Positions 315 to 41,607 are shown, numbered from the stretch's first letter. The stretch is 43,838 nt of DNA from Chiloscyllium plagiosum (GCF_004010195.1 NC_057718.1:6541253-6585090); one strand, 5' to 3'. The notes: generated from the sequence alone by a model not told the origin. A program made the numbers and translations.

Positions 315-507
315 ACCCTCACCTTAACCTCCTTCCACCTATCGCATTCCCAACGCTCCTCCCCCAAGCCCCTCCTCCCTACCTTTTACCTTAGCCTGCT
401 TGGCACACCTTCCTCATTCCTGAAGAAGGGCTTATGCCTGAAACGTCGATTCTCCTGCTCCTCGGATGCTGCCTGACCTGCTGCGCTTTTACAGCAACAC
501 ATTTTTC
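315..507 (+). mobile_element. PLE pseudo-LTR (family A), inverted relative to the adjacent RT fragment
   Basis: C-rich tract, then CATTCCTGAAGAAGGGCTTATGCCTGAAACGTCGATTCTCCTGCTCC...; the same sequence follows the PLE endonuclease C-terminus at 8290-8700. Confidence 0.85.
415..452 (+). ncRNA. Minimal type I hammerhead ribozyme motif (PLE family A)
   Basis: CTGAAGA 420-426, extra A, stem II GGGC-TTAT-GCCT, GAAA 440-443, palindromic stem III ACGT, GUC triplet 445-447; stem I weak. Confidence 0.7.
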
Positions 508-509
508 AC

Positions 510-1149
510 CCAAGTGGGTAGGGTTGTTCAGAAAGCATATGGTGTTTTGGCTTTCATTAACAGGGACATCGAGTTTAAGAGCTGCGACATTTTGCTGCAG
601 CTCTACAAGTCCCTGGTGAGACCACACTTGAAATATTGTGTCCAGTTCTGGTCGCCCTACTATAGGAAAGACACAGAGGCTTTGGAGAGGGTGCAAAGAA
701 GGTTTACCAGGATTCTGCCTGGACTGGAGGCCTTGCCTTATGAAGAAAGGTTGAATAAGCTCGGACTTTTCTCTCTGGAGAGAAGGAGGAAGAGAGGAGA
801 CCTGATCGAGGTATACAAGATAATGAGAGGAATAGATAGATTCGGGGCAGGATTGACTGGTACGAGGAGACATAGTTTGAAGATATTAGGAGGAAGATGC
901 AAAAGAGATGTCAGAGGTAGGTTCTTTATGCAGAGAGTTGTGAATGCATGGAATGCGTTGCCAGCCGTGGTGGTGGAAGCAGAGTCACTGGGGACATTTA
1001 AGCGACTGCTGGACATGCACATGGATAGCAGTGAGTTGAGGGGTGTGTAGGCTAAGCTACTATATTTTACATTAGGATTAAACCTCGGCACAACATCGTG
1101 GGCTAAAGGGCCTGTTCTGTGCTGGACTTTTCTATTGTTCTATGTTCTA
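510..1149 (+). mobile_element. CR1-clade LINE (HER1-like), 5'-truncated ORF2 C-terminus and 3' tail
   Basis: ORF 466-1050 contains LYKSLVRPHLKYCVQFWSP, LERVQRRFTR, LFSLERRRKRGDLIEVYKI and FFMQRVVNAWNALP; ends in (TTCTATG)-like tail. Confidence 0.93.
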
Positions 1150-1151
1150 AT

Positions 1152-4100
1152 CTGTCTCAAACAAAATTTGCTCTGGACTCCAACCCTTAAGTTTATGCAA
1201 GACCTCGACTAGACTGAGAACCAAGACCAGGGAACCTTTCCAGATTAACGATACATCTCTGGTTCCAGTCTGTTATGAGAAGCAGCTGGTTCAGATCCCA
1301 CAGTTTGTAGTAAAAGGCTCAGACCCAAGCCTTTTACCAACGAGGTGAAGTTGGTGAGAAAGATTCACCTCGATTGACTCAACATTTATTGATTGGAAAA
1401 CGGCTGCCTGAATGATGTCCTAATGAAATACCCAGAGGATTTTCAGGAAGGTTTAGCGTGGCATGGTGGCTCAGTGGTTAGCACTGCTGCTTCACAGCAC
1501 CAGAGGCCCGGGTTCGATTCCAGCCTCGGGTCACTGTCTGTGTGGAGTTTGCACATTCTCCCCGTGTCTGCGTGGGTTTCCTCCGGGTGCTCCGGTTTCC
1601 TCCCACAGTCCAAAGATGTGCAGGGTCAGGTGAATTGGCCATGCTAAATTGCCCGTAGTGTTAGATGCATTAGTCAGAGGGAAATAGGACTGGGTGGGTT
1701 ACTCTTCGGAGGGTCGGTGTGGACTTGTTGGGCCAAAGGGCCTGTTTCCACATAGTAGGGAATCTGCCAAAGCTACCTTGCATTGTTGACCCGGAAGCAA
1801 TTCTGCAAGGTGCACCCAGTGCCATTTACCTTAAGGGCAAAAGTAGAGGCAGATATCAGGAGGCTGGAAAGTGAAGGGATCATTAAACCAGCCCTTTTTG
1901 TGGGATGGGCACCACTTGTCATACCAATGTGAAGCCTGACGGGTTTAAAATCCCCTTTGTGGGGATTTTCAAAAAACGGTAACCACTTTTCCCAGCTGGA
2001 TAAATACTCAGTCCCTTGTTGTAAGGATTTATACACAGTGCTGGCAAAGGGAGCTGTCCTTCAGGAAGCTGAACTTGAGCCATGTGTCCGTGCAATTGCA
2101 GTTAGATGAGGACTCCCAGAAAGTATGCTACAATTAATACCCATCAGGGTTTGTACCAATATTCAAGACTGCCATCTGAGATATCGTCAGCCTGTGCAAT
2201 TTTTCAGCTGCCAATGGAGAATATTTTACAAGGTCTACCCCAGGTCACCACTTGTCTGAAAGCCCGCTAATACTAGGGAAGATCAATAAGGAGCATTTAG
2301 AGAGCATGGACATAGTTGTTAGACGTTTCTCACAGGTGGGCATATGCCTTAGAAAGGAAAAGTGTGTGTTTCAGGTGCCCCAAGTGACCCACTTGTGCTA
2401 CAGAGTCATTACAACTGTCGAAGCGCCAGCTCCCACACCTGTACCGGACCTTCAGTCTGTCCTCGAGCTGGTGATTTATTACGGAAAGTTCACACATAAC
2501 CTGGCCTCCATCCTGCCACCTTTGCATCATCTCCTAAAAAAGGGGTCAGCCTTAGAAATGGTCACGTAGCTATGCCATAGCTTTCAGGGAAGTGAAGAAA
2601 CAGTTATCATCCTCAAAGGTGCTGGCACATTATAATCCCAAGCGAGATCTGGTATTGACATGCTTTGTGGCATCAGGGTAGTATTAGCACATAGGTGACC
2701 CAATAGAGAGGAACACCCAATAGTGTATGCATCCGGGACTTTGTCTAATGCAGAGTGTAAATGCGCCTAGATAGCGAAGGAAGGTTAGGCAGTTATGTTT
2801 GGAGTCAGGAAGTTCCACCAATATCTTTACGGATGTAAATTTGCAAGAATAACAGGCCACAAATCCCTGCAAGGTTTACTTAAAGTGGACAAGGTAGTGC
2901 CACCCATAGCTTCAGACCTAATTAAATGCATATAATTACAAGTTGGAACATTGTCCAACAGGCAAAGTAGCAAATGCTGATACATTGAGCTGCCTCTCAC
3001 TGGCAGATACACAACCGATGGTACAGCCACTGGAAGAGTCTGTAATGGTTTTACATTTTCTGGACGCACTTCCCATCACAACTGACAATATTAGACTTTG
3101 GAAGCAGAAGGATCCTATCCTGGACAAACTGAAGCAGCTGGTGGTGGTGTTGGGGAGGGGGGGGGAACCAAAAGGTCATCACAACCAGATTTGAAACCTT
3201 TCTGGACCTGGAGAGACCAGTTCACAGTAGAGGGCAGTGTGTTACTATGGAGAGCAAGAGGGATTGTCCTAAACAAAGGTGTCACCACACATTGGCTGAA
3301 CTCCACCGGAGGGTGTGGGGCTGAGGTGGGGTGGGGGCGCATCCAGGGGTTTCCAAAATGAAGATGTTGGTGAGAGGTTTTGTCTGGTGACCAGGATTGG
3401 ATGCAGACATAGCTGCGTTGGTGGGGGCAGTGCCCAGAGTGCCAGCAAGGACAAAAATTACCACCAGCAGCTCCCCCACATTCGTGGGAATGGCTGGGCA
3501 ATCCGTTGGCTCAGTTACACATCGACTGTGCAGGTCGTTTCATGGGCTCAATGTTCTTTGTCACGATGGACGCCCAGTCAAAAACTAGGAGTTCATTTGT
3601 CAAACGCGGGGACGACGATAGATAAACTGTGCACATCTTTTACAATACACAGGCTCCTGGAAATACTGGTCACAGACAACAGGCCATTGTTTACCAGCAG
3701 GGAATTTGACTATTTGGAAAAATGGAAGTCTTCGTTATTTAAGGACATCTACATACCATCTATACCTGGCAGAAAGAGCAGTCTAAACTTTGAAGGCAGG
3801 CTTAAAGAAATAGCCTATAGCTTCACTCAATACCAAACTATCCCAGTTCCTGTTTGACTATAGGGCCACCCCTCAGGCAACTACAAGGACAGCTCTAGAG
3901 AGTGACCAATGGGGAGAAGACTCTGCACCAGGTTAAATCTGGTCTTCCCAGACCTGAGGGAGAGGGTGAAATGGCATCAGGAATGCCAATGTCAGATTCA
4001 AGACTTCACTAAGTGCGAGAGAGAGAGAGAGAGAGACAGTTTGCTTCAGGGGATGAAGTATGGCGTAGGAACCACAGAAACGGTCCCACATGGGTAAGAG

Positions 4101-4500
4101 GCATGGTTGACACAAAGTCAAGATTGGTGTCATATAAAGTTCAGGTAGGTCCTGAGCAAGCACATGGATCATATGGAAGCCGCGAACTCTCAACCAGGAC
4201 GAGAGCAAGACGTGCCCCACCTCTCACCAGCCTTTCTGATTGTTCTGAACCCAGGGGCTCTCCCTCTCTGTTCAGCAATGAAGTTACCTCGGAATCTGAG
4301 ATAGCGTGGATGTCACTGCCTCAATGCCTGCTGAAGAAGATAATTAGTTTCTTCTGAGACACTCCGGGAGCTGGAGATGAGTTACTGTATGTGAAACACT
4401 GCCCGTATCTGAGGCAGAGTTGGAGAAACCTGACCCTGTGTTAAAACATCTCAAAAAGTGCTAAAAAATAAAACCAAACTGGCCCCTGTCCTCGCACTCA
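1152..4500 (+). mobile_element. Decayed Ty3/Gypsy LTR retrotransposon internal region (PR end-RT-RH-IN)
   Basis: Frame-shifted motifs: LNDVLMKYPEDFQEGL; KYATINTHQGLYQYSRLPSEISSACAIFQ (~2121-2205); [51 protein letters not shown]. No intact YxDD. Confidence 0.9.
1456..1764 (+). mobile_element. tRNA-derived V-SINE (HE1-like) inserted in Gypsy pol
   Basis: A box TGGCTCAGTGG, B box GGTTCGATTCC, V domain GTGTGGAGTTTGCACATTCTCCCCGTGTCTGCGTGGGTTTCCTCCGGGTGCTCCGG, CR1-like tail. Confidence 0.92.
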
Positions 4501-4512
4501 GATGGGGAGGGA

Positions 4513-4936
4513 TGTAGTGATTGAAACAAAGTCAGTCAGGTGGATCCCATAGAAATGAGTTCTCTGATTGGGGCTGTTTATCTGGTTCCATCAGGGAGCC
4601 CTGACTGACAGATAGAAGGTCAGGCAGCATCCAAGGAGCAGGAGAATCGATGTTTTGGGCATAAGCCCTTCTTCAGGAATGACGCTTATGCCCGAAACGT
4701 TGATTCTCCTGCTCCTTGGATGCTGCCTGACCTGCTGCGCTTTTCCAGCAACACATTTTTCAGCTCTGATCTCCAGCATCTGCAGTCCTCACTTTCTCCT
4801 GGCTGTCAGATAGCAACAGGAGTGTCAGAGGGTGCGTTCACTCAGAGCTGTTTTCTGAGGGAGCTGGATCAATGTCAGGGACTCTCCACGCATAAATAAA
4901 GAGTGGCTTGACGCTGACCTCTGTGGAATTATTTCA
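4513..4936 (+). mobile_element. 3' LTR of the Gypsy element, interrupted by a PLE insert
   Basis: Polypurine tract GATGGGGAGGGA 4501-4512 then TGT...; AATAAA near 4895; ends ...TTTCA; homologous to the minus-strand LTR starting at 30415. Confidence 0.8.
4617..4800 (+). mobile_element. Fold-back mini-PLE (family A pLTR)
   Basis: 50-nt inverted arms 4617-4666 and 4684-4733; full tail ...CTCACTTTCTCCT; flanking duplication CCTGACTGACAGATAG / CCTGGCTGTCAGATAG. Confidence 0.88.
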
Positions 4937-5748: not shown

Positions 5749-5871
5749 AAAGCCCTGATGAAGGGCTTTTGCCCGAAACACCGATTTTCCTGCTCCTCGG
5801 ATGCTGTGCTTTTCCAGCCCCACTCTAATCTTGATTCTAACCTCCAGCATCTGCAGTACCCACTCTCGCCT
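5749..5871 (+). mobile_element. Mini-PLE (family A variant) with hammerhead core
   Basis: CTGATGA 5755-5761, GGGC-TTTT-GCCC, GAAA; TSD TAGGGTTTCAGATA 5735-5748 / TAGGGTGTCAGATA 5871-5884. Confidence 0.85.
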
Positions 5872-6118
5872 AGGGTGTCAGATACCCTGCACACACTACT
5901 TTTCACGTTAGAGATGGCAACACAGATGGGATTGTTTTTAGTTAAACTGAGGAATGCCTCGACCACCTCCTGGCATTGTGCAAAGAACAGGAGAGGACAA
6001 TTTGTAAATGGTCTCAGATGAAGGACGGAGGGGGGGTGACTGAAGGATAAGGTTGATACAGGATCAAAAATTAGGTGAATAAGCAGATACTAGGATATCT
6101 GGACCAGATGACAGTTAC

Positions 6119-6479: not shown

Positions 6480-7050
6480 GAGAAAAAAAAAGACAAGTCT
6501 TTGGGATCAGATGGATTTCATCTGAAGATATCGCAGATGATGGTCCGACATAATTTTCGAAAGCTCTCCAGATTCGGAAACCCTGCCTTCAGTCAGAAAA
6601 TTACATACACCCACTCATTCTTCACAGAACAATAGAGAAAGGCACCAGTTCAAAATCAGTTGGAGGGAAACTAGTGGGAGCTATAATTCGAGGCAGAGTG
6701 ACTCAGACATGGTTCACATCTGAGTTGTTTCGGGAGAGTCAGCGTGGTTTCATGAAAGGTGAGGCACATTTTACAAAACACATTGGTCTCTATGAATGAT
6801 GGGCACGGAAATGATAGTGGAGCAACAAATCAATACTGGAAGGCTGGAAATCTGAAATAAAAGGAACAGAAATTCTGGAAATGCTCAGCAGGCCATGTAA
6901 CATCAACGGAGAGAGAAGCAGAGTTAAAAAGTCAAATAAATGACAGTTCACCAAAACTAGTTCCATGAGTATTATCTATATGGAATTCCAGAGACATTTG
7001 GTAAGGTTTCACGTTAGAAATTATCAAAATTGAAAATGCATAAAATTTTA
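6480..7050 (+). mobile_element. Old CR1 RT fragment interrupted by a decayed PLE pLTR (~6825-6955)
   Basis: GAGTCAGCGTGGTTTCATGAAAGG (SQxGFMKG) and ATCTATATGGAATTCCAG (IYM(D)FQ) remnants. Confidence 0.55.
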
Positions 7051-7455: not shown

Positions 7456-7471
7456 ATTAGCGTTAGCAGAT

Positions 7472-7690
7472 ACAAAAATGGAAATTGCCGGAAAAGCTTG
7501 GCAGATCTGGCAGCATCCTCAGAGAGAAATCAGTGCTAACATTTCAGAACTGGCAACCCTTCCTCAGAATCCGGACCCGAAGCGTTAACTCTGATTTCCC
7601 TCCACGGATGTTGCCAGATCAGTTGGACTTTCCCAGCAATTTCTGTTTTGTCTGATTTGCAGCGTCCACAGGTCGTGTAATTTTTATTCA
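7472..7690 (+). mobile_element. Fold-back mini-PLE (family B)
   Basis: Imperfect inverted arms ~7472-7545 / 7572-7650 centred on a decayed hammerhead (GGACCCGAAGCGTTAAC); TSD-like TTAGCAGATACAA / TCAGCGGATACAA. Confidence 0.78.
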
Positions 7691-8070: not shown

Positions 8071-9143
8071 GGGAAGGGCATTATTAAGCTGGAGAAGGTT
8101 CAGAAAAGATTTACCAAACTGTTGCCAGGAGTAGACGGTTTGAGCTATAAAGACTAGGAGAAAGCGAGGGCTGCATTTGCTGGAGATCAGAGTCAGGAAG
8201 TGTGGTGCTGGAAAAGCACAGTAGGTCAGACAGCATCCGAGGAGCAGGAGTCGATGTTTCAGGTTTAAGCCCTTCATCAGGAATGCCTCCTCCACTGCCA
8301 CCCGACGCCTGGAGGAAGAACGGCTCATCTTCTGCCTTGGGACTCTGAAACCACACGGCATCAATGTCAACTTCACCAGTTTCCAAATCCCCCCTCCCCC
8401 ACCTCATCTCAGATCCAACCCTCTAACTCAGCACCAGCTTCATGAACTGTCCTACCTATTCACCTTCCTTCCCACCTATCCTCTCCACCCTCCCCTCCGA
8501 CCTCTCACCATCAGCCCCCACTTCCATCTACCCTCTGCACTCTCAACTCCCATCCCCCAGACCCACCCCCATCCTCCTATTTTTCTCTCAGCCCCCTTCC
8601 CGCTACCACATTCCTGATGAAGGGCTTATGCCCAAAACATTGACTGTCCGCTCTTCAGACACTGCCTGACCTGTTGAGCTTTTCCAGCACCACACTTTTC
8701 AGTTCAAGTTATCAAGAAAGGCTGCCTCGGCTGGGTCTTTTTCACTGGACAATAGGAGGTGGAGGAATGACATTATAGAGCTTTATAAAATCATGAGGAG
8801 TATAGATAAGTTGAGGGCAGGTATCTTTTCCCTAGGATGGGAGAGTTCAAGCCTAGGAGGCAGATTTATAAGGTGAGAGGAAATGGATTTATAAAAAACA
8901 TGAGGGGCAATTTCTTTAATCAGAGAATGGGTCATGTGTGGAATCAACTTCCAGAGGAAGTGGTGGATGCAGGTGCAGTTGCAACATTTAAAATACGTTT
9001 TGGGTAAGTCCATGAATAGGAAAGATTTAGAGGGATATGGGCTAGGAGCGGGCAGGTGAGACTAGTTTAGTTTGCGATTATGGTCGACATGAACTGGTTA
9101 GACCAAAGGGTCTGTTTCTGTATTATATGACTCAATGACTCTA
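8071..9143 (+). mobile_element. CR1 LINE 3' fragment split by a PLE
   Basis: KLEKVQKRFTKLLPG before 8155 continues after 8705 with RLGLFSL...ELYKIMR...WNQLPEEVV; (GACTCTAT)-like tail. Confidence 0.88.
8157..8700. mobile_element. PLE insertion: minus pLTR (8157-8286) joined to plus-strand endonuclease C-terminus and pLTR
   Basis: ATRRLEEERLIFCLGTLKPHGINVNFTSF (GIY-YIG domain C-terminus of PLEs); hammerhead cores at 8614-8637 (+) and ~8255-8281 (-). Confidence 0.9.
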
Positions 9144-10506: not shown

Positions 10507-10640
10507 AACAACAAAATAAAGAACTGTGGATGCTGGAAATCAGAAATAGAAATTGCTGGAAAAACTCAGCAGGTCAGGCAGCAACTGTGGAGAGAAAACA
10601 GAGTTAACGCTTTGAGTCCACTGATCCTTCTTCAGAACAG
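10507..10640 (-). mobile_element. Mini-PLE (family B), truncated just upstream of hammerhead
   Basis: RC reads GTT-CTGAAGA-AGGATCAGTGGACTC-AAAG-CGTT-AAC then ...CCAGCATCCACAG tail. Confidence 0.8.
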
Positions 10641-10917: not shown

Positions 10918-11043
10918 AGGCGGAAGTGGGTACTGCAGATGCTAGAGATTAGAGTCAAGACTAGAGTGGTGCTGGAAAAGCACAGCAGGTCAGGCAGCAT
11001 CCGAGGAGCAGGAAAATGGACATTTTGGGCAAAAGGCCTTCAT
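10918..11043 (-). mobile_element. Mini-PLE (family A variant), truncated inside hammerhead core
   Basis: Reverse complement of 5755-5871; TSD AAGGTATACTGTGTA 10904-10918 / AAGGTATCCTGTATA 11044-11058. Confidence 0.85.
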
Positions 11044-11115
11044 AAGGTATCCTGTATACCCTACATAAGCAATGGCAAATGCTGTGGTAAAGTATATTGC
11101 TGATGACCAGCTAAT

Positions 11116-11517
11116 CCAGAACTAGCATCACAGTCTAGGGATACAGGGCAGGCCATTTCAGACTGAGATGAGCAGAAATGTCTTCACCCAGAGATTGGGG
11201 AGCCTCTGCCACAGAAAGTGGATGAAGACAAAACATTGAAAGATTTCAAGAAGGAATCAATATAGTTCTTAGGGCGAAAGTGATCAAAGGATATGGATAG
11301 AATGTGGGAACTGGGTCATGAAACGCACAAAGACAGAAATGCTGGAGAAACTCCCCAAGTCTGAAGAAGGGTCAGAGGACTCGAAACGTTAACTTTTGTT
11401 TCTCACCAGCATCTGCATTTCTTTGTTCAATACCAGGGTTCAGAGTTAGATGATCAACCAGGATGATATTGAAAGGCTAAAAGGCCTACCCCTGCTTCCA
11501 TTTGCTCTGGTTCTATG
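11116..11517 (+). mobile_element. CR1 3' end interrupted by a mini-PLE (~11320-11428)
   Basis: GRPFQTEMSRNVFTQR remnant; tail resumes at ~11432. Confidence 0.75.
11357..11395 (+). ncRNA. Minimal hammerhead ribozyme motif (PLE family B), intact core
   Basis: AAGT-CTGAAGA(11361-67)-A-GGGTC-AGAG-GACTC-GAAA(11383-86)-CGTT-AACTT. Confidence 0.7.
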
Positions 11518-13325: not shown

Positions 13326-13533
13326 TAGAGACTAAAAAAGACTGCAGATGCTGGTCTCCAAAGTAGACAGGCAGGAGGCTGGAAGAACACAACAAGCCAA
13401 GCAGCATGAGGAGGTGGAGAAGTCAATGTTTCAGTATAATCCTTCTTCACGAATCGATGTGGGGTAAGGGGAGCTCCCCTAGCCCCACACCTAGTCCTGA
13501 AGATGGGTTATACCCAAAACATTGACTTCTCTA
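13326..13533 (-). mobile_element. Fold-back mini-PLE (family C) with perfect 15-bp TSD
   Basis: TGATGAACCAGTAGT at 13311-13325 and 13537-13551; inverted arms 13417-13473 / 13474-13531; AGTC-CTGAAGA-TGGGTTATACCC-AAAA-CATT-GACT. Confidence 0.88.
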
Positions 13534-13744
13534 ACTTGATGAACCAGTAGTAGCCTGTGTTCCTAACTGTGGTATACCTTGATGATGTACTGGTACACTG
13601 TGAAACTTTAAGGAAACACTTAGAAAAGCTGCAATTCCTTTGCAAAAGATTAAAGGCAGCTGTTTTTGAGGTAAACTCTGTGAAGAGCAACGTTAACAAA
13701 CAGTAATACTGACTCAGGGACTGGTGCAGCCTGAACAGCTGACT

Positions 13745-14050
13745 GATAGGGTAGGCAGGAAGAAATATTCCCCCTTATTTGAGACATCAATGTCCAAGGC
13801 ACATAGATTAAAGGCAGAAGGTTTAGGGGAGATGTGAAAAGCATCATTTCCACCCAGAGGGTGGTGGGAATCACTACCTGTCAGGGTGGGAGAGGCAGAA
13901 ACACTCATCCCATTGAAGAATGTACACTTGCGATAACAAAGCGTACAAGGCTGTGTGTCAAGCGCTGGAAGATAGGATTAGAATCATTAGGTGGCTGTTC
14001 TTGACTAGCACGGCTGTGATGGGTGGAAGGGCTGTAGATCTCCATGACTC
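13745..14050 (+). mobile_element. CR1 3' fragment inside the Gypsy relic
   Basis: RRFRGDVKSIISTQRVVGI remnant and tail. Confidence 0.75.
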
Positions 14051-15525: not shown

Positions 15526-16808
15526 AGAGTCATAGCGTTATAGAGATGTACAGCATGGAAATAGACCCTTCGATTCAACCCGTCCATGCTGACCAGATAT
15601 CCCAACCCAATCTAGTCCCACCTGCCAGCACCTGGCCCATATCCCTCCAAATCCTTCCTATTCATATACCCATCCAAATGCCTCTTAAATGTTGCAATTG
15701 TACCAGCTCCACCACTTCCTCTGGCAGCTCATTCCATACACGTACCATCCTCTGCGTGAAAAAGCTGCCCCTTTAGGTCTCTTTTATATCTTTCCCCTCT
15801 CACCCTAAACCTATGCCCTCTAGTTCTGGACTCCCCGACCCTCAGATCCTCCAACCCTGGCAACATCCTTGTAAATCTTTTCTGAACCCTTTCAGGTTTC
15901 ACAACATCTTTCTGATAGGAAGGAGACAAGAATTGCACGCAAAATTCCAAGTGGCCTAACCAATGTCCTGTACAGTCGCAACATGACCTCCCAACTCCTG
16001 TACTTAATACTCTGACCAATAAAGGAAAGCGTACCAAACGCCTTCTTCACTTTCCTATCGACCTGCGACTCCACTTTCAAGGACCTATGAACTTGCACTC
16101 CAAGGTCTCTTTGTTCAACAACACTCCCTAGGACTTTACCATTAAGTGTATACGTGATGCTCAGATTTGCTTTCCCAAAATGCAGCACCTCGCATTTATC
16201 TGAATTAAACTCCATCTGCCACTTCTCAGCCCATTGGCCCATCTGGTCCAGATCCTGTTGTAATCTGAGGTAACCCTCTTCACTGCCCACTACACCTCCA
16301 ATTTTTTTGTTATCTGCAAACTTACTAACTGTACCTCTTATACTCACATACAAATCATTTATGCAAAAGACAAAAAACAGAGGACCCAGCACCTATCCTT
16401 GTGGCACTCCACTGGTCACAGGCCTCCAGTCTGAAAAACAACCCTCCACCACCACCCTGTTTTCTACCTTTCAGCCAGTTCTGTATCCAAATGGTTAATT
16501 CTCCCTGTATTCCATGAGATCTAACCTTGCTAATCAGTCTCCCATGGGGAACCTTGCCGAACGCCTTACTGAAGTCCATATAGATCACATCTACTGCTCT
16601 GCCCTCATCAATCTTTGCTACTTCTTCAAAAAACTCAATCAAGTTTGTGAGACATGATTTCCCACGCACAAAGCCATGTTGACTATCCCGAATCCGTCCT
16701 TGCCGTTCCAAATACATGTACATCCTGTCCCTCAGGAATCCCTCCAACAACTTGCCCACCACCGAGGTCAGGCTCACCGGTCTATAGTTCCCTGGCTTGT
16801 CTTTACCG
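15525..16808 (-). mobile_element. CR1 LINE RT region to 3' tail with internal deletions
   Basis: SLTSVVGKLLE, SQHGFVRGKSCLTNLIEFFEE, VDVIYMDFSKAF, LGPLFF, SKFADN (catalytic DD mutated), WQMEFNSDKCEVLHFG. Confidence 0.95.
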
Positions 16809-17586
16809 CAATCTTAACATAGCCACTTGCAATTTGATAGCAATGTTTCTGTTTCAAACACTGATAGGTATCGATTGTCATATAATAGTGAGTTCGTGCA
16901 ATGATTAATATGATGGAAAAAGCTCCCCAGCCTATTCACTGGACTAGTCAGCCAGTTTGGGCCATCAGTTAATCTTGGGACAGGGACTAATTCTACAGTT
17001 CAAGGACATCTGGTGTGTAAAAAGGAGCCAGAAAACTCTACTGCTACTGTCTGATACTAACAGACCCTGTCAGTTTAGTTAATGATAACTTTCCAACATT
17101 CATCAACAGTCAATGAACAGCGAGTTGGAAACTGTTCCTCTATCATATTTTCAGTGCATTAACTATGTTGTTACCAGGTGAACAAGAATGAATCAACTCC
17201 ACTCTTTTCAACCTCCTTGGCCCACCTCAGCACATATTTTATTTCCTTTTAACTTAGCCCCATTATAACAGTATGAAGTAGTAAGCTAAAACAATAATAC
17301 GTGTCAAGAATGCGTTGCTGGGAAAGCACAGCAGGTCAGGCAGCACCCGAGGAGAAGCCAATTTCAAGGTTTTTTTGAGTGCAACGGAGAACAGTTTATT
17401 ACTTACTCACCTTTAGTAAAATCATAAAGACATTACATTAACACAGGTACATAGTGATAAAAGAGATTGTGTCCAGTTCAAACAAGGAAGACAGGAAGAT
17501 AAAAGAATATGCAGGTTACTGTCCTCCGATCATTATGAGGTTGTTTGATTTTAACCTGAATTACGAGGTCAACGGTGCCCATAGTT

Positions 17587-20756: not shown

Positions 20757-21008
20757 GTACAAAGTTAAAAATCACACAACACCAGGTTATAGTCCAACAG
20801 GTTTATTTGGAAGCACTAGCTTTCAGAGTGCTGTTCCTTCATCAGGTGGTTGTAGAGAATATGTATAGCTTACAGTCCACAACCACCTGACGAAGGAGCA
20901 GTCCTCTGAAAGCTAGTGCTTCCAATTAAACCTGTTGGACTATAATCTGGTGTTGTGTGATTTTTAACTTTGTACACACCAGTCCAACACCGGCATCTCC
21001 AAATCATG
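20757..21008 (+). mobile_element. Fold-back mini-element (putative PLE family D) with two opposed hammerheads
   Basis: 97-nt inverted arms 20757-20853 / 20879-20975, plus unpaired tail ACACCAGTCCAACACCGGCATCTCCAAATCATG. Confidence 0.85.
20884..20918 (+). ncRNA. Minimal type I hammerhead ribozyme motif (family D)
   Basis: Stem I CAC/GTG, CTGACGA 20887-20893, A, stem II GGAG/CTCT, GAAA 20908-20911, palindromic AGCT, CUA triplet. Confidence 0.75.
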
Positions 21009-21194
21009 TTTGTTGTGGTTCAGAACAAATCAGTGTGCTCCAGTCAGCAATAGGCATCTATGTCAATGATATTTTAAGAAGCCCAGGGGTTAAGGCAGAA
21101 AGCAGTGTGTGTGGAGAGATTGAAGACTTCACATCATACTTTGAGTTTCACATGAAAGTTTTAATAGACCAGAAAAGATATTTGTTCAGCTATG

Positions 21195-23912: not shown

Positions 23913-24005
23913 TGTCAGAAGTCACATGACACCAGGTTATAGTCCAATAGGTTTATGTGACATCACTGCTCCTTTGTCAGGCTCCGAAAGCTTGTGACAA
24001 AAATA
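23913..24005. mobile_element. Decayed family D fold-back element
   Basis: ACACCAGGTTATAGTCCAATAGGTTTAT...CTGCTCCTTTGTCAGG|CTCCGAAAGCTTGTG. Confidence 0.6.
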
Positions 24006-30414: not shown

Positions 30415-31733
30415 TGAAGTAATTGCACAGAGGCTGGTATCCTGTCACCAAGTCACCCTTTATTTATAAAGTTAAAAATCACCCAACACCAGGTCGTAGT
30501 CCAACAGGTTTATTTGGAAACACTAGCTTTCGGAGCACTGCTTCTTCATCAGGTGATATTTGCACGTGGAGAGTTATTGACATTGAGCCACTGTGAACAG
30601 AGTCTCTGACACTGTTGAGCTCTATCAGCAAGGGCTCCCTGCTTGGACCAGGCTAACAGACCCAATCGGGGAAATCATAGTCGAAGACGATAAAGGCCGT
30701 CCTTTATTTTGCAGCTCCTCCTGAGGCATTTTTAGCATTGGGTCAAGTTCCTCCAACTCTGTCTCTGATACGGGCTGTGTGTAACACACATGTAACACGT
30801 ATTGCAACTGGAAAGTCTTAGAAGAAATTAATTCTGTTCATCGAGTGGCAAAGGACCCGAGATGGCGACATCTCGAACAGATTCTGAGATATATTCAATG
30901 CTTGACAGACAGGGAGAAACCATGGGTTCTGAAATAGTTGGAAGGACTGTTGAGGAGCCGGGCATGTTATGCTCCCGCCCTGGTTGCGAGTTTGCAGCTT
31001 TCATATGGTCCACATCACACCAATCGAACTTTATGCATCACTGGACCCGACCTCATGCTGACCATGTCTCTGACCCATGCAGGGCCATTCCCATGGTTTG
31101 TCCCCTTTGGTAAACTGTCTCTCTCACTTACTGGAGTCGTGTGTCCAGCATTGGTGATCCTGATGCTGTTTCACTCACCTCCCCAGCCAAGGCCAGGAAG
31201 ATCAGATTTAACTTGGAGTGGAGTCTACTCCCCATTAGTAACTCTGTTGGAGCTGTCCCTGTAGTTGCTTGAGGGGTGGCCCTATAATCAAACAGGAACC
31301 GGGATGGTTTGGTAGCGAGTGAAGCTGTAGGCTGTTTCTTTAAGCCTGCCTTCAAAGTTCAGACTGCTCTTTCAGCCAGACCATTGGATGATGGATGGTA
31401 TGGAGCTGTCCTTATATGATGACTACCATTCGACTTTAGGAAATACATAAACTCCCTGCTGGTAAACAATGTCTCGTTATCTGTAACTAACATTTCCAGG
31501 CATTGCAAAAGGTGCATGCAGTTTTTTCTATTGTCGTCCCTGTGTTGACGAATGAACTCAGTGCATGTCCAACCACTTTGAGTGGGCGTCCACAGTGACT
31601 AAGAACATTGAGCTCATGAAAGGACCTACACAGTCAACGTATAACTGAGTCTATGGTTTACCTGGCCATTCCCACGAATGTGGGGGAGCTGCTGGTGGTA
31701 AATCTTTTCCTTGCTAGCACTCTGGGCACTGCC
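30415..31733 (-). mobile_element. Second copy of the Gypsy family at 1152-4936: integrase and partial 3' LTR
   Basis: [44 protein letters not shown] end RC CCTCTGTGCAATTACTTCA matches 4918-4936. Confidence 0.9.
30468..30557 (-). mobile_element. Family D mini-element with hammerhead, inserted in Gypsy LTR
   Basis: RC of 30521-30555: CAC-CTGATGA-A-GAAGCAGTGCTCC-GAAA-GCTA-GTG. Confidence 0.83.
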
Positions 31734-35089: not shown

Positions 35090-35800
35090 CAATGAAGGTT
35101 TCCCAGACTGATTCCGAGGATGGCAAGACTGAGGGAAGCTTGACGAGATTGGAGTTGTTTTCGCTGGAGTTCAGACGAATGAAGGGGGGACCACATAGAG
35201 ATTTATAAAATTCTAGCAAGACGAGATAGCCATAATGAGGAGGTGCCAGTGTAGGACTGGGGTGCACAATGTTAAAAATCACACAACATCAGGGTATGGT
35301 TCATGAGGGTTTATTTGGAAGCACTAGCTTTCAAAGCGCTGTTCCTTTGTCAGGTAGCTACCTGATGAATAAGCAGTGCTCTGAAAGCTTGTACTTTCAA
35401 GTAGACCTGTTGGACTATAACCTGGTGTTGTGTGATTTTTAATTAGGACTAAATAGGGTAGATACAGGGAGGGAATGTTCCCCGATGGTGGGTGTGTCCA
35501 GAACCAAGGTTCACAGTCTGAGGATTCAGGGCAGACCATTTAGGACAGAGATGGGGAGACATTTCTTGGCCTGGTGAGCCTGTCGAATTCATTACCATGG
35601 GAAGTAGCTGATGCCAAAACATTGAATGTATTCAAGAGGTGGCTCGATATAGCACTTGGGGTGAATGGGGTGAAAGTTTGTGGGGAAAAAGCAGGATTAG
35701 GCTATTGAGTTGGACGATTAGCCATGATGTTGATGAATGATTGTGCAGGCTCGAAGGGTTGAATGGTCTACCCCTGCTCCTATCTTCTATGTTTCAATGT
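35090..35800 (+). mobile_element. CR1 3' fragment split by a family D element
   Basis: RLELFSLEFRRMKG before 35230; GQTI/GRPFRTEMGRHF region and tail after 35443. Confidence 0.8.
35231..35442 (-). mobile_element. Fold-back mini-element (family D), zero-loop palindrome
   Basis: Arms ~35272-35357 / 35358-35442 centred on CAGGTAGCTACCTG; CTGATGA 35362-35368. Confidence 0.85.
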
Positions 35801-36004
35801 TTCAACAATTCCACACTAAAGAAGGCATACATTTGGCAGGTTTGTCATCCCCTTAGGACATCTGTTTGATCTTAATCAAGCCCTTGGGAGTGGAAAGGCC
35901 TCTCTCCATGCTGTAATGATCCATGATTCCAGGATTGTCTGCAGAAAGTTGGCAATGATGGGCATCAGATGAACAAAACTATGAGTTTATTCTTAGCTAA
36001 GCGG

Positions 36005-36220
36005 CAGATACATATGAACACCATCTCCTGCAAGTTCCCCTCCAAGCCACTCACTATTCTGACTTGGAAATGTATTGCTGTTCTTTCAAAGTCACTGTGT
36101 CAAACATTATGTGTCTACCTACAGCACACGGTCTGCAGTGGTTCAAGAAAGCAGCTCACCACTACCTTCTCAAGGGCAATTAATGATGAGCAATAAATTC
36201 TGAGCCATTTATTGACATTC
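36005..36220 (+). mobile_element. LINE 3' end (CR1/L2 group) sharing its tail with SINE family 2
   Basis: GGTTCAAGAAAGCAGCTCACCACTACCTTCTCAAGGGCAATTAATGATGAGCAATAAAT resembles the tail at 9688-9742. Confidence 0.55.
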
Positions 36221-37138: not shown

Positions 37139-37225
37139 AAGAAGAGTCACACCCGAAACATTGACTTCTGCACCTCCTGATGCTGCCTAGCTTGTTGTGT
37201 TCTCCCAGCCTCCTGCCTGTCCACC
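37139..37225 (+). mobile_element. Mini-PLE (family C), truncated inside the hammerhead core, within a SINE family 2 copy
   Basis: AAGAAGAGTCACACCCGAAACATTGACTT...; TSD AGACCATTTCAGAG 37125-37138 / AGACCATTTCACAG 37226-37239. Confidence 0.8.
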
Positions 37226-37344
37226 AGACCATTTCACAGGCCAATTAAGAGACACGGACATGGCTGTGGTTCCGCAGTCACATGTAGGCCAGACCAATTG
37301 AGGATGGCAGACTTCCTTCCCTAAAGGACATTGGTGAACCAGAC

Positions 37345-37962
37345 AGAGTCACAGAGATGTACAGCATGGAAATAGAACCTTCGGTAAAACTCGTCCATGC
37401 CGACTAGATCTCCTAATCTAGTCTAGTCCCATTTGCGAACATTTGGCCCATATCCCTCTAAACCCTTCCTATTCATGTACCCATCCAGATGACTTTGAAA
37501 TGCTGTAATTGTACCAGCCTCCACCACTTCCTCTGGCAGTTCATTCCACATATGCACCACTCTCTGCGTGAAAAAGTTGCCCCTCAGGTCCCTTGTAAAA
37601 CTTTCCCCTCTCAGCTTAAACCTATGCCCTCTAGTTTTGGACTCCCCTACCACTGGGAAAAGACATTGACTATTCATCCTATCCATGACCTTTTGATTTT
37701 ATAAACCTCTGTAAAGTCATCCCTCAGCTTCTGGTGCTCCAGGGAAAACAGTCCCAGCCTATTCAGCCTCTCCCTGTAACTCAAACCTTCCAACTCTGGC
37801 ACTATCTTTGTAAATCTTTCCTGAACCCTTTCAAGTTTCACAACATCCTTCGTGTAGCGGGGAGACCAGAATTGCATGCGATACTCCAAAGGTTGTCTGA
37901 CCAATGTCCTGTTCAGCCACAACATGACCTCCCAAATCCTTTTCTCAATGCATTGACCAATA
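37345..37962 (-). mobile_element. CR1 3' fragment
   Basis: TLVRQPLEYRMQFWSP, LERVQERFT, NFFTQRVVHMWNELPEEVVEAG. Confidence 0.93.
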
Positions 37963-39411
37963 TTTTCTGACAATTGACAGTAGTTTCATGGTCATCATCT
38001 TGATATAAAGAGCATGAAGAGACAAGAGATTTGTGCTTACAGCAAAATGCTTTAGTAATTTTAAAAAGAAAATCACCAAAACAAGATCACTAAGCAACAG
38101 CCAGTTAAATCAAATGATTAAACAGTGCCTGGAAATCTTGAGTCATGGACAACTGGATTTCGGTTCTGAAGAAATCTCTCTGTAGAATTTGTAACAGAGC
38201 TGCCCAGGTCAAACTTCATTGATTTTCTGGGTGGATGTGATCAAGTGATGCTAGTTAGTGTTTCAATTCAAGAGGAAATGGAATACAATACAGGTTGACA
38301 TATGGAAACACAGTCTGGTATGAGAAAAAAATTAAACTCAGCAGTTTAACAATTAGAGAGAGAAAAAAAAAATTAAACTGGAGCGATTTGTTTTAGTGAA
38401 TATCATTGAGTTGAACAAAATAATTGCTTTAGAATGTAACTTTCAACTTGGCTTGTCAGGAGCAATCAGCGCGTTGAGAATGAATTCGTAATCTGAGGCA
38501 TCTTTCGAAACATTACCTGAATTTCATGCCAGTGACTAAAAGGCAATTCACATGTCACTGTTTAAAACTACAAGCACAATAAGTCGTGGATGATGGCTCT
38601 CAAGGTCTAAAGACATGTAAAAGTGATTGGGTAATTTAAACAGACATGCTAACATCAGCATCGTGTAAGTCATAAGATAAGTTCCAAGAAACCAAGAAAC
38701 TTGGTATTAAAATAAGTTTATTTTTAAAAAGCCTACAAACTAATATGGATTTTCCATTAGTTTATAAACCTTGTCATTGATTCAGTTAATCTTTAACTGG
38801 GGAAAGACCTTGACCATATATGAAGCCGTCTGAAAAGGTTTCACTAAAGATATTTTAAAAATATTAAGTTTTACCCAGCTATGATCCAACGAGTTAATTT
38901 GTTCCACTTCTCATAATAATTCAACTTTCCCTCATTCATGTATTTCTCAGTCACTGTCAGTGCAAAGGGCATTTGTCTTAAACACAGTGAGATTCCTTGG
39001 AGTGGGAATAGTGCAAAACTGACCGAACGTTAGACAGAATAGCAGCTCAAATGGCATACATGGTCCCACAGAAGGCAGGCTTTTCTGAGTTTGGTTATTT
39101 ATGACCCACTGCTGTCTTTTAAATGTCATCATTACCCTGGCTTGATTTTTGAGAGATATCTATTCAAGATGAATACATGTGTTGTATTAAAATCAGATAG
39201 AACCAAATTTCATTAAGCGTTTGCTCGTAGCAATGCCAAGCTAGGTCCACTGTATTCCTGGCTGAATGGCTTAACTGTGCTCCAAATTCATCTGTCTGTT
39301 TGTACAAAGGCTTCCTCACAAGGCCTCCTGCTTTGAGCCCTTCCTAGCCCCACTCTCAACCACTCGTCTTCCCATGACAAGTCAGTCGTTGGCACTTACT
39401 CTTGTCATAAA

Positions 39412-39852
39412 GAGAGTCATTGATCCCTACAACATGGCCCAAACAAGTCCATGCCGACCAAAATGTCTGTTCACGCTAACTCTATTTCCCTGCACTTGGC
39501 CCATATCCTTCTAAACCTATCCATGTATTTGTCCAAATGTCCTTTAAATGTTAATGTACCCACCTCAACCACTTCCACTGGCAGCTCATTTCATGTGCAT
39601 ACCACCCTCTGTGTAAAAAGCATTACCCTTCAGATTCCCTTTTATTCTTTCCCCCCAAACTTTAAATTGATGTCCTTTAGTCCTCGATTCCCCAACCCTG
39701 GGAAAAAGACTGAGTGCATTCACCCTATCTATGCCTCTCATGATCTTATACACTTTGATAAGATTCCCCCCTCAGTCTCCTAAGCTCTAAAGAAAAAGGT
39801 CCTAGCTTGTCCAACCTCTCCCTACAACCCAGTCCCTTGAGTCCCAGCAACC
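39412..39852 (-). mobile_element. CR1 3' fragment
   Basis: Reverse complement of the ORF2 end and tail, homologous to 37345-37800. Confidence 0.88.
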
Positions 39853-41408
39853 CAGTCTTGGACTGGGTTTTCAATGGGTTAGAACCAGATTTAACTAAAC
39901 AAATGAATTAATCATAACAATGGATTGCACAACAGTTAAGTCCGCAATTCTCATTACCTTTTTGAGTTAAAATATGAAAACATTCCTGAAAAGAAAGGAA
40001 AAATACATAATTTGATGTACTGCCCATTGTTTTTCTCCTGGGTGTAGTTTGTAGGTGTGTCCTAGAGTTTAATCTTCAATTCTTGGAAATTATGGTCAAG
40101 TTGGGGAGTTGGCACCCTCACTTGCCTGAAGGTCTTCCATTTCCACCTCTCTCTTGCTTCCTCCCATCTCGTTAATAACAAATGGGGTATTGATGAGATC
40201 TTTATCCAATTTTATCCAGTAAATGTCTTGGACTTACATCCCACTGTGTTGTGACAATGTTTACACCTTAGAGAATTCTTCCTAAAAACTTAATCTGGCT
40301 TCGGTTTCTTCAGCCCATAAGGATGGAAAGCAGTCCAAATCTACCACTTGAAGAGGAAATTATATTACTGCATTTGGATTATTTAATGGGTCACTGCTGA
40401 CAGAATATCAAGATTGCTGTCCCCTAGGAAGCGGATTCCAATAAAACAGAATTAAAAAACATTTCAGCCACTGCATTTGCAGATTATAATCTTGCATTAT
40501 TCATTTTCCAATTATCAGTAGATGCAAGCACTCCGTAATTCCTCTCTCAAGAATAGCTATTTGCTTTCCCTTATCTCAATTTTCCTCACAATTTCAGAAC
40601 TTGCCTCCTGTCAAATCTGATCATTTCTCATATCACCTGCCCACTGCAAATCTTTGCTATGTTTCTCTCTTTAATTCTTTGCATTAAATTAAATTTTTGG
40701 AGGTTTGCAAAGTCCATAACACACAATTGGCTGCTGATTATACACCTCATGTCACCATTCAAATTCAGCAATTACACAGCACCATAGTATCCAATATACA
40801 TACTGTATGAAGTACACACTATCCTATCCTGGAGATTACACCTTCTGTCTGTTATATGTAATGTATCCTATAAGCACACTTCTGATATAAACCTGCTTCT
40901 TCTTACTTCCCACTGTAAATCCCACACCTTGCCCACCCTGCGCATTTTACACTTACCTATTGCATGAGTAATTCCTACCAATTCACTTTCTTTTTCATTT
41001 GTTAGGAGGTCAAAAACCCCTCAATATATTTTTTTGTCAAAAAAATACTTTTTCCTCCACAGTACACTTGCTGTGGCCAGCCAGCTTGGAGTCAGACCAA
41101 GTCACCTTTTACAGATGCAACTACCTCCCACTCTGCCCATTATCCACCCTGCCCATTATACACTCTGCCTGTTACCCACTCTGCCAATTATCCACCCTGC
41201 CCGTTATCCACGCTCCCATTATCCACCCTGTCAATTATCCACCCTGCCGATTATCCACCCTGTCCATTATACACCCTGCCCATTATACACCCTGCCCATT
41301 ATACACCCTGCCCATTATAAACCCTGCCCATTATCCACCCTGTCAATTATCCACCTTGCCCATTATACATCCTGCCCATTATAAACCCTGGCCATTATTC
41401 ACCCTGGA

Positions 41409-41607
41409 AGGAGAAAGTGAGGACTGCAGATGCTGGAGACCAGAGTTGAAAAATGTGGTGCTGGAAAAACACAGCAGGCCAGACAGCATCCGAGGAGCAG
41501 GAGAATTGACATTTTGGGTATAAGCCCAGAAGGGCTTATGCCCGAAACGTCAATTCTCCTGCTCCTCCAATGCTGCCTGGCCTGCTGTGTTTTTCCAGCA
41601 CCACATT
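41409..41607 (-). mobile_element. Fold-back mini-PLE (family A)
   Basis: 76-nt inverted arms 41452-41527 / 41532-41607 with 4-nt loop AGAA at the hammerhead core. Confidence 0.9.

Follow-up and report, generated by a model that had tools for sequence, protein, structure and literature searches.

The short hammerhead-bearing pieces scattered over a 43,838-nt stretch of the Chiloscyllium plagiosum genome (hereafter the window) are very probably 5′-truncated, 3′-terminal stubs of Penelope-like elements (PLEs), belonging to two lineages with a record of huge activity in this genome. Such stubs are a known kind of genomic debris, and their copy number is the main oddity here. At least 103,561 exact intact motifs were found genome-wide (exact modal motifs of families A, D and B: at least 86,254, 16,898 and 409, respectively), while a reversed-pattern control gave 0 matches genome-wide; the predicted high abundance is supported. 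These numbers surpass the approximately 4,000 motifs of coelacanth and 9,000 of Xenopus that Cervera and De la Pena 2014 (PMC4209133) single out as remarkable, although the latter are structural-descriptor counts and not strictly comparable.

The swarm of hammerhead motifs in the window is real, as was predicted. There are 14 matches to the loose pattern CTGANGA-N3-30-GAAA, compared with 5.14 ± 2.31 after shuffling, and none of 100 shuffles reached that number. Under a strict descriptor, in which the core must be intact, a bulge is optional and stem II has 4 bp or more, five sites are recovered (420-443+, 5755-5778+, 7567-7542−, 11361-11386+ and 20887-20911+) where 200 shuffles gave a mean of 0.055 and a maximum of 1, which is an excess of about 90-fold. 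Three of the five sites, and no shuffle, continue into ACGT or AGCT, a palindrome of 4 nt, with H as the next letter. That many pieces carry the motif was correct in so far as the motifs are real, but only 11 window copies span the ribozyme at six or fewer substitutions and only 11361-11390 is identical to the modal motif. The conserved boxes CUGANGA and GAAA are those of the PLE variant of minimal type I hammerheads, the type originally proposed, and one box is lost in many individual copies. A search with Rfam models did not recover them: no hammerhead family was matched in the window, whether the gathering score or an E of 10 served as the threshold, a miss that would be expected for motifs lacking a helix III hairpin. 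A homology search with nine family representatives as queries yielded 24 merged intervals, of which about 20-21 are convincing PLE pieces; the weak matches at 6875-6911, 13378-13432 and 13851-13872 and a LINE-derived match at 16745-16807 were excluded from this count. Since seven head-to-head inverted pairs are included, the pieces represent about 15 insertion events, and the predicted figure of about 18 insertions holds for pieces but not for events.

Differences in sequence between the families are accompanied by a preserved stem II, which was also anticipated and is evident from compensatory pairs across families A, B, D and F. The first base pair is G-C (G10.1-C11.1) in all four; the third is G-C in A and B, A-U in D and U-G in F, and the fourth C-G in A, U-A in B, G-C in D and A-U in F, that is, three pair types at the third position and four at the fourth. 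Changes on both sides of the stem are rare inside families (A 1, D 2, B 0). The stem is 4-5 bp long in A, B and D, and 7 bp in F, like the 7-8 bp Schistosoma families (PMC4209133). The D stem first read as GGAG-CAGTC-CTCT is a CpG-decayed form of an original 5-bp GGAGC/GCUCC stem. In A, B and F the loopless helix III palindrome reads ACGU and the next nucleotide is C or U; in D it reads AGCU and the next nucleotide is A. Helix I is weak, with 1-3 contiguous pairs: two pairs, a U.U mismatch and one further pair in A, three pairs, a C.C mismatch and two further pairs in D, and 1-4 pairs, set by the upstream sequence, in B. This is weaker than the 4-5 bp of published minimal hammerheads, among which a D. 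virilis variant has a helix I of 2 bp (PMC4209133). When single copies are folded, stem II alone forms (z-scores −0.5 to +0.7). The motifs otherwise agree with the minimal hammerheads of metazoan PLEs (PMC4209133) in the CUGANGA and GAAA boxes, one unpaired nucleotide before stem II, G10.1-C11.1, the loopless palindromic 15.x-16.x segment followed by H and the location in the PLE terminal repeat. They also share with them the several sequence families per genome and the mostly solitary copies, which were considered probable derivatives of truncated PLEs, with some pairs on opposite strands.

In the following, positions such as +86 or −11 are counted from the start of the CUGA box. At the left edge of the window, a 5′-truncated PLE body holding the N-terminal part of the reverse transcriptase (RT) in the ORF list (2-319, minus; RVT_1 E 0.0012, 19 bits against a cut-off of 29.6) lies head-to-head with a family A1 stub without tail (314-510, plus; hammerhead 420-447 with a G.U base pair in stem II). 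The body extends left of the window to a family A hammerhead and 3′ end of its own on the minus strand (locus L024), and 150 of its genomic matches, out of 58,263 first-look candidates, were scored at 83-91% identity. The linkage of family A to RT that had been claimed at 1-507 thus dissolves into an inverted pair (RT 2-319 minus, stub ~314-510 plus) rather than a single colinear element. The claim for 8157-8700 fared better, as a 410-nt 5′-truncated PLE 3′ end without tail is colinear at 8290-8701 (plus), with 3′ UTR and a decayed hammerhead at 8614-8641, but just the last ~35 endonuclease codons (8290-8400) are left. A family A3 arm with tail and a degenerate stem II occupies 8156-8285 (minus; −5 to +126). 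Family A hammerheads lie about 200 nt beyond the endonuclease C-terminus in the window and in loci L004 and L020.

A further family A pair consists of an arm at 4614-4682 (minus; −6 to +63) with a CpG-decayed hammerhead (GAAA to AAAA, ACGT to ACAT) and its partner at 4684-4800 (plus; +10 to +126) with the 37-nt tail of this family, flanked by a possible target duplication of ~11 bp, CTGNCAGATAG. Another is formed by an A3 arm with tail at 41409-41527 (minus; +8 to +126), inserted in a 16-bp satellite, and a family A arm without tail at 41528-41614 (plus; +4 to +91). The same satellite is found on the flanks of a frameshifted PLE ORF fragment (41741-42660, minus) with RT thumb, CxxC linker and the endonuclease almost to its C-terminus, which lacks a 3′ UTR or hammerhead of its own. 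Single A2 stubs with tail are located at 5753-5874 (plus; hammerhead 5755-5782 with intact core and the palindrome lost as ACAC) and 10918-11050 (minus; mutations in both core boxes), and a tail-only fragment without ribozyme at 17303-17357 (minus; +35 to +90). Weak miRNA-like hairpin matches in Rfam, far below gathering scores, were noted at 4625-4726, 35309-35406 and 41436-41620, and the first of these reflects the inverted pair at 4614-4800.

A B2/E-type arm at 7469-7569 (minus; −2 to +100), whose hammerhead at 7567-7542 has an intact core and a decayed palindrome, is head-to-head with a second at 7571-7651 (plus; +16 to +96). The single family B stub at 10510-10638 (minus) has a decayed hammerhead (10635-10606) and a possible flanking 7-bp target duplication. 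In the family B hairpin unit at 11321-11460 (plus), which holds the one fully modal hammerhead of the window, the unit's tail is present as a short inverted copy (11321-11359) directly next to a forward arm (11360-11460) with an internal tail deletion. Family D is represented by two pairs, 20757-20857 (minus; no tail, −12 to +89, hammerhead 20845-20817 with 3 substitutions) with 20876-21008 (plus; 36-nt tail, −11 to +122, hammerhead 20887-20915, predicted cut after 20915), and 35228-35355 (minus; tail, −2 to +125, core decayed) with 35360-35442 (plus; no tail, −2 to +81, hammerhead 35362-35390 with 4 substitutions). In addition, there is a single stub without tail at 30465-30555 (minus; −3 to +88, hammerhead 30552-30524 with one stem II substitution) and an internal tail fragment at 23919-23955 (minus; +42 to +79).

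At least four families had been proposed; these collapse into two deep lineages with subfamilies: A/B/C/E, with one common 3′ module, and D, with a different tail and a divergent ORF. Family C is not upheld as a family, being one old A/B-like copy (13497-13535, plus) with the GGGU/ACCC stem kept, the GAAA box changed to AAAA and an unrecognisable tail. Family D was at first assigned to the PLEs by analogy, and this assignment is now supported by physical linkage, since in loci L026 and L028 an ORF is located 0.6-1.3 kb upstream of a D hammerhead on the same strand. In this ORF an RT thumb is accompanied by a CxxC linker and by a GIY-YIG-like motif (VVYLI...YIGET), and we take the linker and the motif to be marks of PLE endonucleases. 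The ORF matches the family A PLE ORF of the window at 47% (E 5e-12) and 38% (E 2e-5) identity. Pfam searches with the fragments gave RVT_1 at E 0.0012 and GIY-YIG at E 0.021, both under curated cut-offs; longer shark relatives of the D-linked ORF scored 36.5 and 40.2 bits for RVT_1 (cut-off 29.6 bits). No full-length PLE parent could be read in the fetched loci, because many of their ORF bodies consist of N.

The ends of the copies were compared in a 275-kb sample of loci picked by similarity to the window and enriched for young copies. In 60 family D copies the 3′ ends form two groups, 24 between +77 and +90 and 36 between +115 and +130, centred on ~+86 and ~+122 and hence ~36 nt apart, whereas the 5′ ends are scattered from +40 to −527 and beyond. 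Upstream of −20, at scattered positions, 34 of the 60 run on into 3′ UTR and ORF; pairwise homology of copies reaches more than 1.2 kb upstream, and in longer copies the sequence of the short pieces passes seamlessly into 3′ UTR and ORF. Two pile-ups of 5′ ends are found just 5′ of the core, 11/60 at −14 to −9 (at least one of these, in L035, being an alignment artefact) and 10/60 at −3 to +1. With a common 3′ end, scattered 5′ ends and colinearity with RT/GIY-YIG ORFs, the pieces do not bear out a class of mini-elements of their own.

The arrangement of neighbouring copies points in the same direction. Same-family neighbours within 450 nt, counted for 143 ribozyme-spanning copies, are head-to-head in 15 cases, same-strand in 1 and tail-to-tail in 2. 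On contig 1, the first 100 exact motifs of family D include, within 2 kb, 9 head-to-head, 2 tail-to-tail and 0 same-strand neighbour pairs, and the one same-strand pair is 2.5 kb apart. The 17 family D pairs include 14 of tail with no-tail and 3 of tail with other, none of tail with tail and none of no-tail with no-tail, so that the 36-nt tail is on exactly one arm in 14/14 classifiable pairs. In 8 of these 14 the arms stop within 10 nt of each other, junction positions otherwise varying widely, and 8/19 family B hairpins have a common arm junction with an overlap of 3 nt. PLE insertions are described as highly 5′-truncated, with an abutting inverted 5′-truncated copy, a 30-40 bp tail at one end and targets that include short tandem repeats (Craig et al. 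2021, PMC8557442), and the window pieces match this signature. They differ from that description in that extreme short lengths dominate, and no direct partial tandem (pLTR-ORF-pLTR, with pseudo-LTRs) was found in the window. Elsewhere, on contig 1, same-strand family A motif pairs 2.4-2.6 kb apart hint at PLE partial tandems.

A close parallel is PAc, the Poseidon PLE of Anolis carolinensis, for which Frangieh et al. 2024 (PMC11167929) report a hammerhead ~100 nt upstream of two adjacent RT start sites, a gap between these sites that equals the genomic tail, a protein that cuts and extends both DNA strands, and no RNA-seq reads starting or stopping at the ribozyme cut site. Likewise, RNA reads span the predicted family D cut site with no depth step and no listed read-end pile-up, in a poly(A)-selected library from which cleaved 5′ products would be lost. 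The PAc ORF is reported to start inside stem II, whereas in family D the ribozyme is followed by a stop codon and by a poly(A) signal that is used. Family D transcripts terminate 30 nt beyond the predicted cut site, at a poly(A) site, and the stubs thus carry a poly(A) signal and site, used in transcripts, just past that position. In the arm at 20876-21008 the AUUAAA signal is inside AATTAAA (20924-20930) and poly(A) is added after 20942/20945. In the discontinuous hammerhead of mammalian CLEC2 3′ UTRs, as reviewed in PMC6765202, the cut site is also just 5′ of the polyadenylation signal and cleavage would strip the poly(A) tail; its architecture and host-gene setting are different, and the likeness to family D is positional only and involves a predicted cut site.

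Ribozymes complete in all features were found in 18/47 copies of A, 11/37 of B, 19/55 of D and 1/4 of F, and these intact fractions are overestimates because similarity-based choice enriched the sample for young copies. CpG transitions account for 34/77 substitutions in A, 36/84 in B and 24/96 in D.

The original prediction saw the 90-250 nt pieces as a retroelement class of their own. As a mechanism, such a class would consist of non-autonomous mini-retroelements in which a ~135-nt module of hammerhead and RT-recognition tail (a hairpin in family B) is self-transcribed and copied in trans by a PLE reverse transcriptase. The two 5′-end pile-ups, together 21/60, the nearly equal arm ends of 8/14 family D pairs, the very high numbers of intact motifs and the recurrent family B junction, which would fit amplification of a unit, speak for this reading. 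Furthermore, PLE initiation in vitro is reported to need only RNA just 3′ of the hammerhead (PMC11167929), and animal retrozymes are presented as derived from PLE pLTRs in a preprint (10.64898/2026.07.22.740005). Nevertheless, more than half of the family D copies pass −20 at scattered points into 3′ UTR and ORF, the copies show neither a distinct 5′ head nor a promoter-like module, family D junctions vary widely, the 3-nt overlap at the family B junction would allow recurrence by microhomology, and the copies appear to decay neutrally. Two fixed 3′ ends, seamless continuation into ORFs and mostly one-tailed head-to-head pairs likewise speak for truncated PLEs, and independent mini-elements seem to us decidedly unlikely.

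Animal non-LTR retrozymes (Cervera and De la Pena 2020, PMC7229834; Li et al. 2026, 10.64898/2026.07.22.740005) are also non-coding PLE-related repeats with type I hammerheads that may need dimers to act, and one cartilaginous fish is listed in the latter work with retrozyme families averaging 363 bp. That the pieces are monomers or relics of such tandem hammerhead repeats, spread via circular RNAs, is nonetheless highly improbable. Retrozymes are described as tandem 170-400 nt units with canonical helix III and loops and with circular RNAs, whereas the motifs here are minimal, lack helix III and the loops of canonical retrozyme ribozymes, and are dispersed or inverted. No tandem arrays of 170-400 nt hammerhead units were found by Tandem Repeats Finder in the window, where it reports just 16-bp and 19-bp satellites, or by the neighbour count with its 1 same-strand case among 143 copies, and the fixed 3′ ends suggest linear target-primed copying. 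Least credible of all are foldback DNA transposons or microRNA-like hairpin genes with incidental hammerhead-like boxes. The weak Rfam precursor matches at three inverted pairs would agree with such hairpins, but the arms are unequal, their outer ends coincide with the two 3′ ends of PLEs, and their sequence runs on into PLE ORFs in longer copies. The ~90-fold excess of the strict motif and the empty reversed-pattern control also argue against incidental boxes.

Under the favoured interpretation as truncated PLE copies, the PLE ribonucleoprotein would, judging from the cited papers, nick both DNA strands, and reverse transcription would begin at either of two internal RNA sites ~36 nt apart (~+86 and ~+122 in family D). 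Synthesis of cDNA would mostly halt inside a few hundred nucleotides, and two short cDNAs would then join head-to-head, with the 36-nt tail staying on one arm. In PMC11167929, both strands are reported to be cut and extended by the PLE protein, and the tail to be explained by the two internal sites at which RT starts. The minimal type I hammerhead is ~60-95 nt upstream of the start sites, and will therefore be included in any cDNA longer than ~90-125 nt. The ribozyme belongs to the pLTR of the parent element, where selection on master copies keeps the core, the bulged nucleotide, G10.1-C11.1, the covarying stem II and the 4-nt palindrome with H. In the stubs the motifs are probably solitary, with no nearby same-strand partner, and decay neutrally, so that most stubs would be ribozyme fossils and not working units.

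The 5′-end pile-ups and near-equal arms of family D could reflect short RNAs with defined 5′ ends and not poor processivity. One may therefore speculate, though we consider it rather unlikely, that the stubs are more than failed copies and that the hammerhead with the next ~95-125 nt is the smallest PLE module sufficient by itself. Short RNAs whose 5′ ends lie 2-11 nt before the core would then be copied off both DNA strands at once, yielding equal arms and exactly one tail, and some products, e.g. the family B hairpin with its recurrent junction, might be re-mobilised as units. If this were true, family D would spread working poly(A) sites, each 30 nt past a ribozyme cut site, and the at least 100,000 insertions in this genome would constitute a natural record of the integration mechanism of PLEs.

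The loose box pattern CTGANGA...GAAA occurs 14 times in the window, as compared with 5.14 +/- 2.31 times in shuffled sequence, and a strict descriptor, which demands an unbroken core and no fewer than 4 bp in stem II and tolerates a bulge, identified five sites versus a mean of 0.055 in 200 shuffles. At three of these five sites a 4-nt palindrome is followed by H, which occurred in none of the shuffles, and the modal motif is matched exactly in the window by 11361-11390 only. Self-comparison and searches with nine family representatives delimited 24 homologous intervals in the window, about 20 of them convincing; three weak intervals were dropped and a fourth was due to a LINE adjoining one of the representatives. 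The Rfam hammerhead models gave no match in the window, neither at the gathering score nor at E up to 10. The sole Rfam signals were weak microRNA-like hairpins (4625-4726, 35309-35406 and 41436-41620), which appear because the arms of inverted pairs form hairpins.

The four features of minimal hammerheads that Cervera and De la Pena listed as not imposed by their own descriptor (PMC4209133) are all present here. The motifs fall into several sequence families related by compensatory changes, a single unpaired nucleotide separates A9 from G10.1, G10.1 pairs with C11.1, and the 15.x-16.x segment is a palindrome (ACGU or AGCU) with H directly after it. The expectation that the families differ in sequence yet keep the fold was borne out for the pairing of stem II, where the changes between families are compensatory: the third base pair is G-C in A and B, A-U in D and U-G in F, and the fourth is C-G in A, U-A in B, G-C in D and A-U in F. 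These pairs were counted by script from fixed motif positions, because a MAFFT alignment of 69 intact motifs misaligned D and F. A fifth minimal-hammerhead type, F, distinguished by a stem II of 7 bp and by a bulged U, is absent from the window and was found in the fetched loci only, at L021:2943-3002 (+) and L018:143-202 (-). A 3' module following the ribozyme is common to the three subfamilies of A, to B, to the B-like variant at 7469-7651 and to the decayed 'C' copy at 13497-13535, which places these in one lineage, and the tail of family D differs from that of this lineage.

Family D had been assigned to the Penelope-like elements (PLEs) by analogy, and physical linkage to a PLE open reading frame now supports this. 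In two fetched loci, L026 and L028, the D hammerhead is preceded at a distance of 0.6-1.3 kb by such an ORF in the same orientation, which encodes an RT thumb, a CxxC linker and a GIY-YIG-like motif. It is divergent from, yet homologous to, the family A PLE ORF of the window, with 47% identity (E 5e-12) and 38% (E 2e-5). The ORF fragments themselves score below the Pfam cut-offs (RVT_1, E 0.0012; GIY-YIG, E 0.021), and longer relatives from sharks pass that for RVT_1.

The original prediction of a class of non-coding mini-elements is not upheld by the ends of the copies, which were surveyed in 275,351 non-N bases comprising the window and 77 loci, 7 redundant loci having been dropped. For 60 family D copies that include +45 to +75, positions being numbered from the start of the CUGA box, the 3' ends form two groups, with 24 copies at +77 to +90 and 36 copies at +115 to +130. 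The 5' ends are scattered from +40 to beyond -500, and pairwise homology reaches more than 1.2 kb upstream, into the ORF. Family A shows the same end behaviour; an apparent cluster of its 5' ends at -106 was an artefact of a truncated reference copy and was dropped. In the copy at 8290-8701 the last endonuclease codons are followed by the 3' UTR and then by a decayed hammerhead. A physical linkage of PLE and hammerhead had also been proposed for 1-507, where instead a minus-strand body lies beside a plus-strand stub of about 200 nt. The RT-bearing body (2-319, minus strand) ends outside the window and has its own hammerhead in the fetched locus L024, and the linkage at 1-507 is therefore that of an inverted pair. 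A further inverted stub and truncated body are found in L011. Copies with 5' ends at the cut site would be expected of cDNAs copied from self-cleaved RNA; no start at +29/+30 was seen among the 60 family D copies, and for family A two of 72 copies start at +28, without a pile-up.

Seven insertions in the window are head-to-head inverted pairs. Of the same-family neighbours found within 450 nt in a set of 143 ribozyme-spanning copies, 15 are head-to-head, two tail-to-tail and one on the same strand. One tail per head-to-head pair is a strict rule: in 14 of 17 family D pairs one arm ends near +120 and its partner near +86, the other three combine a tailed with a ragged arm, and two-tailed or two-untailed pairs are not found among the 17. 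The family A pairs at 8156-8701 and 41409-41614, with a tail of 37 nt, obey the same rule, and at 4614-4800 a tailed plus arm is paired with a minus arm that stops early, at +63. Only two plausible target duplications were seen in the window, at 4614-4800 and 10510-10638. The pieces match the PLE insertions described in passages of PMC8557442, which are strongly truncated at the 5' end, abut an inverted truncated copy and carry a 30-40 bp tail at one end. In the Anolis PLE, according to a 2024 in vitro study (PMC11167929), the protein cuts and extends both strands, in agreement with the paired arms, and reverse transcription begins at either of two neighbouring sites within the RNA, spaced by the length of the tail, which fits the tails observed here. 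The same study leaves the mode of PLE integration open.

Truncation of longer elements is the probable origin of these stubs; a less likely reading is that hairpin units, or short RNAs whose 5' ends are fixed, themselves serve as templates. In its favour, the family D 5' ends are clustered within their overall scatter, 11 of 60 lying at -14 to -9 (at least one of them an artefact) and 10 of 60 at -3 to +1. Together with the arm junctions they gather 2-14 nt upstream of the ribozyme core (L026-L054; window positions 20876 and 35355/35360), and both arms end within 10 nt of each other in 8 of the 14 classifiable pairs. This clustering might reflect RNA 5' ends or a hairpin intermediate. In family B, the tail is repeated in inverted orientation immediately before the ribozyme in 19 of 28 copies (L056-L084; window 11321-11460), and variable positions agree between both arms of one copy. 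Eight of the 19 hairpins have a junction in common, with the inverted arm cut at +58 and a 3-nt overlap, which points the same way. The reading as truncated 3'-terminal PLE stubs rests on the fixed 3' ends, the scattered 5' ends and the homology running into the ORF, and is considered probable.

Transcription of family D was followed in one poly(A)-selected single-cell run (X13), in which 1,633 reads of at least 90% identity aligned to 20861-21060; run X14 gave no aligned reads. Across the predicted cut at 20915|20916 the sense depth climbs from 899 to 1,118 without a step, an observation uninformative on cleavage in a poly(A)-selected library, and no pile-up of molecule starts or ends was listed on 20861-21060 in this run. 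Untemplated poly(A) follows 20942/20945 in 796 reads (244 + 552), where the sense depth falls from about 1,190 to about 320; addition takes place 15-20 nt past AAUUAAA/AAAUAAA at 20924-20930. The family D module thus contains a poly(A) signal and site that are used. The signal, AUUAAA in this plus arm (20924-20945) and AAUAAA in many copies, lies 9 nt past the predicted cut. The used site, about 30 nt after the cut, is upstream of the genomic 3' ends at +86/+122, so the templates that were copied must read through it. A literature search for a PLE ribozyme adjoining a polyadenylation signal found nothing specific.

All ribozyme criteria hold for 18 of 47 A, 11 of 37 B, 19 of 55 D and 1 of 4 F copies, in a sample that favours young copies. 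Helix I is weak, with 1-3 contiguous pairs. When single copies of A, B, D and F were folded, stem II alone formed (z-scores -0.5 to +0.7). When A, B and D were cofolded as homodimers, the dimers of lowest energy differed from the hammerhead dimer, pairing in family A through an imperfect 13-nt palindrome that surrounds the GAAA box; this speaks neither for nor against a hammerhead dimer. Within families the changes are mostly one-sided, with CpG sites as hot spots. Compensatory change between families, one-sided change within them, CpG decay and weak folding together indicate that selection acts on master elements and that copies degenerate once inserted. Near the window copies there is no partner of the same family and strand, which closes to them, in cis, the dimer route of the literature.

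Genome-wide, exact modal motifs number 86,254 for A, 16,898 for D and 409 for B, with zero matches of the reversed-pattern control for each. This amounts to at least 103,561 exact intact motifs in the 3.56-Gb assembly, or about 29 per Mb; the RT fragment has 58,263 first-look candidates, 150 of which were scored. Cervera and De la Pena termed about 4,000 minimal hammerheads in coelacanth and 9,000 in Xenopus remarkable (PMC4209133), and for the axolotl, excerpts of two reports give 126,247 retrozyme hammerheads (PMC7229834) and a genome of 28.21 Gb (10.64898/2026.07.22.740005). Summed DNA-contig depth, which is not a copy number, peaks at 8.4 million over 20938-20944 and is lower over the ribozyme core (0.36-1.56 million) and the tail (0.89 million), a profile that suggests many still shorter, ribozyme-less fragments. 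Same-strand pairs of exact motifs 2.4-2.6 kb apart occur on contig 1 of the assembly and may be pseudo-LTR pairs around near-full-length PLEs. A search for shark PLE hammerheads in print found nothing specific.

Other repeats share the window with the PLE pieces. A 16-bp satellite with the unit CATTATCCACCCTGCC (41128-41406, 41604-41740 and 42661-43426) is split by the family A head-to-head pair at 41409-41614 and by a PLE ORF fragment on the minus strand (41741-42660) that is without its own 3' UTR and hammerhead; these insertions fit the reported PLE bias toward short tandem repeats. CR1/L2-like LINE fragments with RT and a conserved C-terminal domain lie at 520-1050 (+), 15729-16813 (-), 37423-37985 (-) and 43541-43837 (-), one of them adjoining a family A stub at 510. 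ORF fragments at 2180-3860 (+), judged by eye from the ORF list to resemble LTR-retrotransposon or retrovirus-like pol from RT to integrase, have no relation to the PLE pieces.

The occurrence of minimal hammerheads in the terminal repeats of PLEs, for the most part as truncated solitary copies, is already known; Cervera and De la Pena regarded them as mostly solitary and probably truncated PLEs, with some opposite-strand pairs (PMC4209133). Here, we add new family members, an unusually high load and some clean statistics relevant to PLE integration. In annotation, the pairs that form hairpins should be treated as fragments of PLEs and masked; labelling them as microRNA precursors or as novel ribozyme genes would be wrong. 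The strict one-tail rule and the clustering of junctions immediately 5' of the ribozyme are relevant to the mechanism of PLE integration, and with a used poly(A) site in the family D stubs, thousands of them may end host transcripts.
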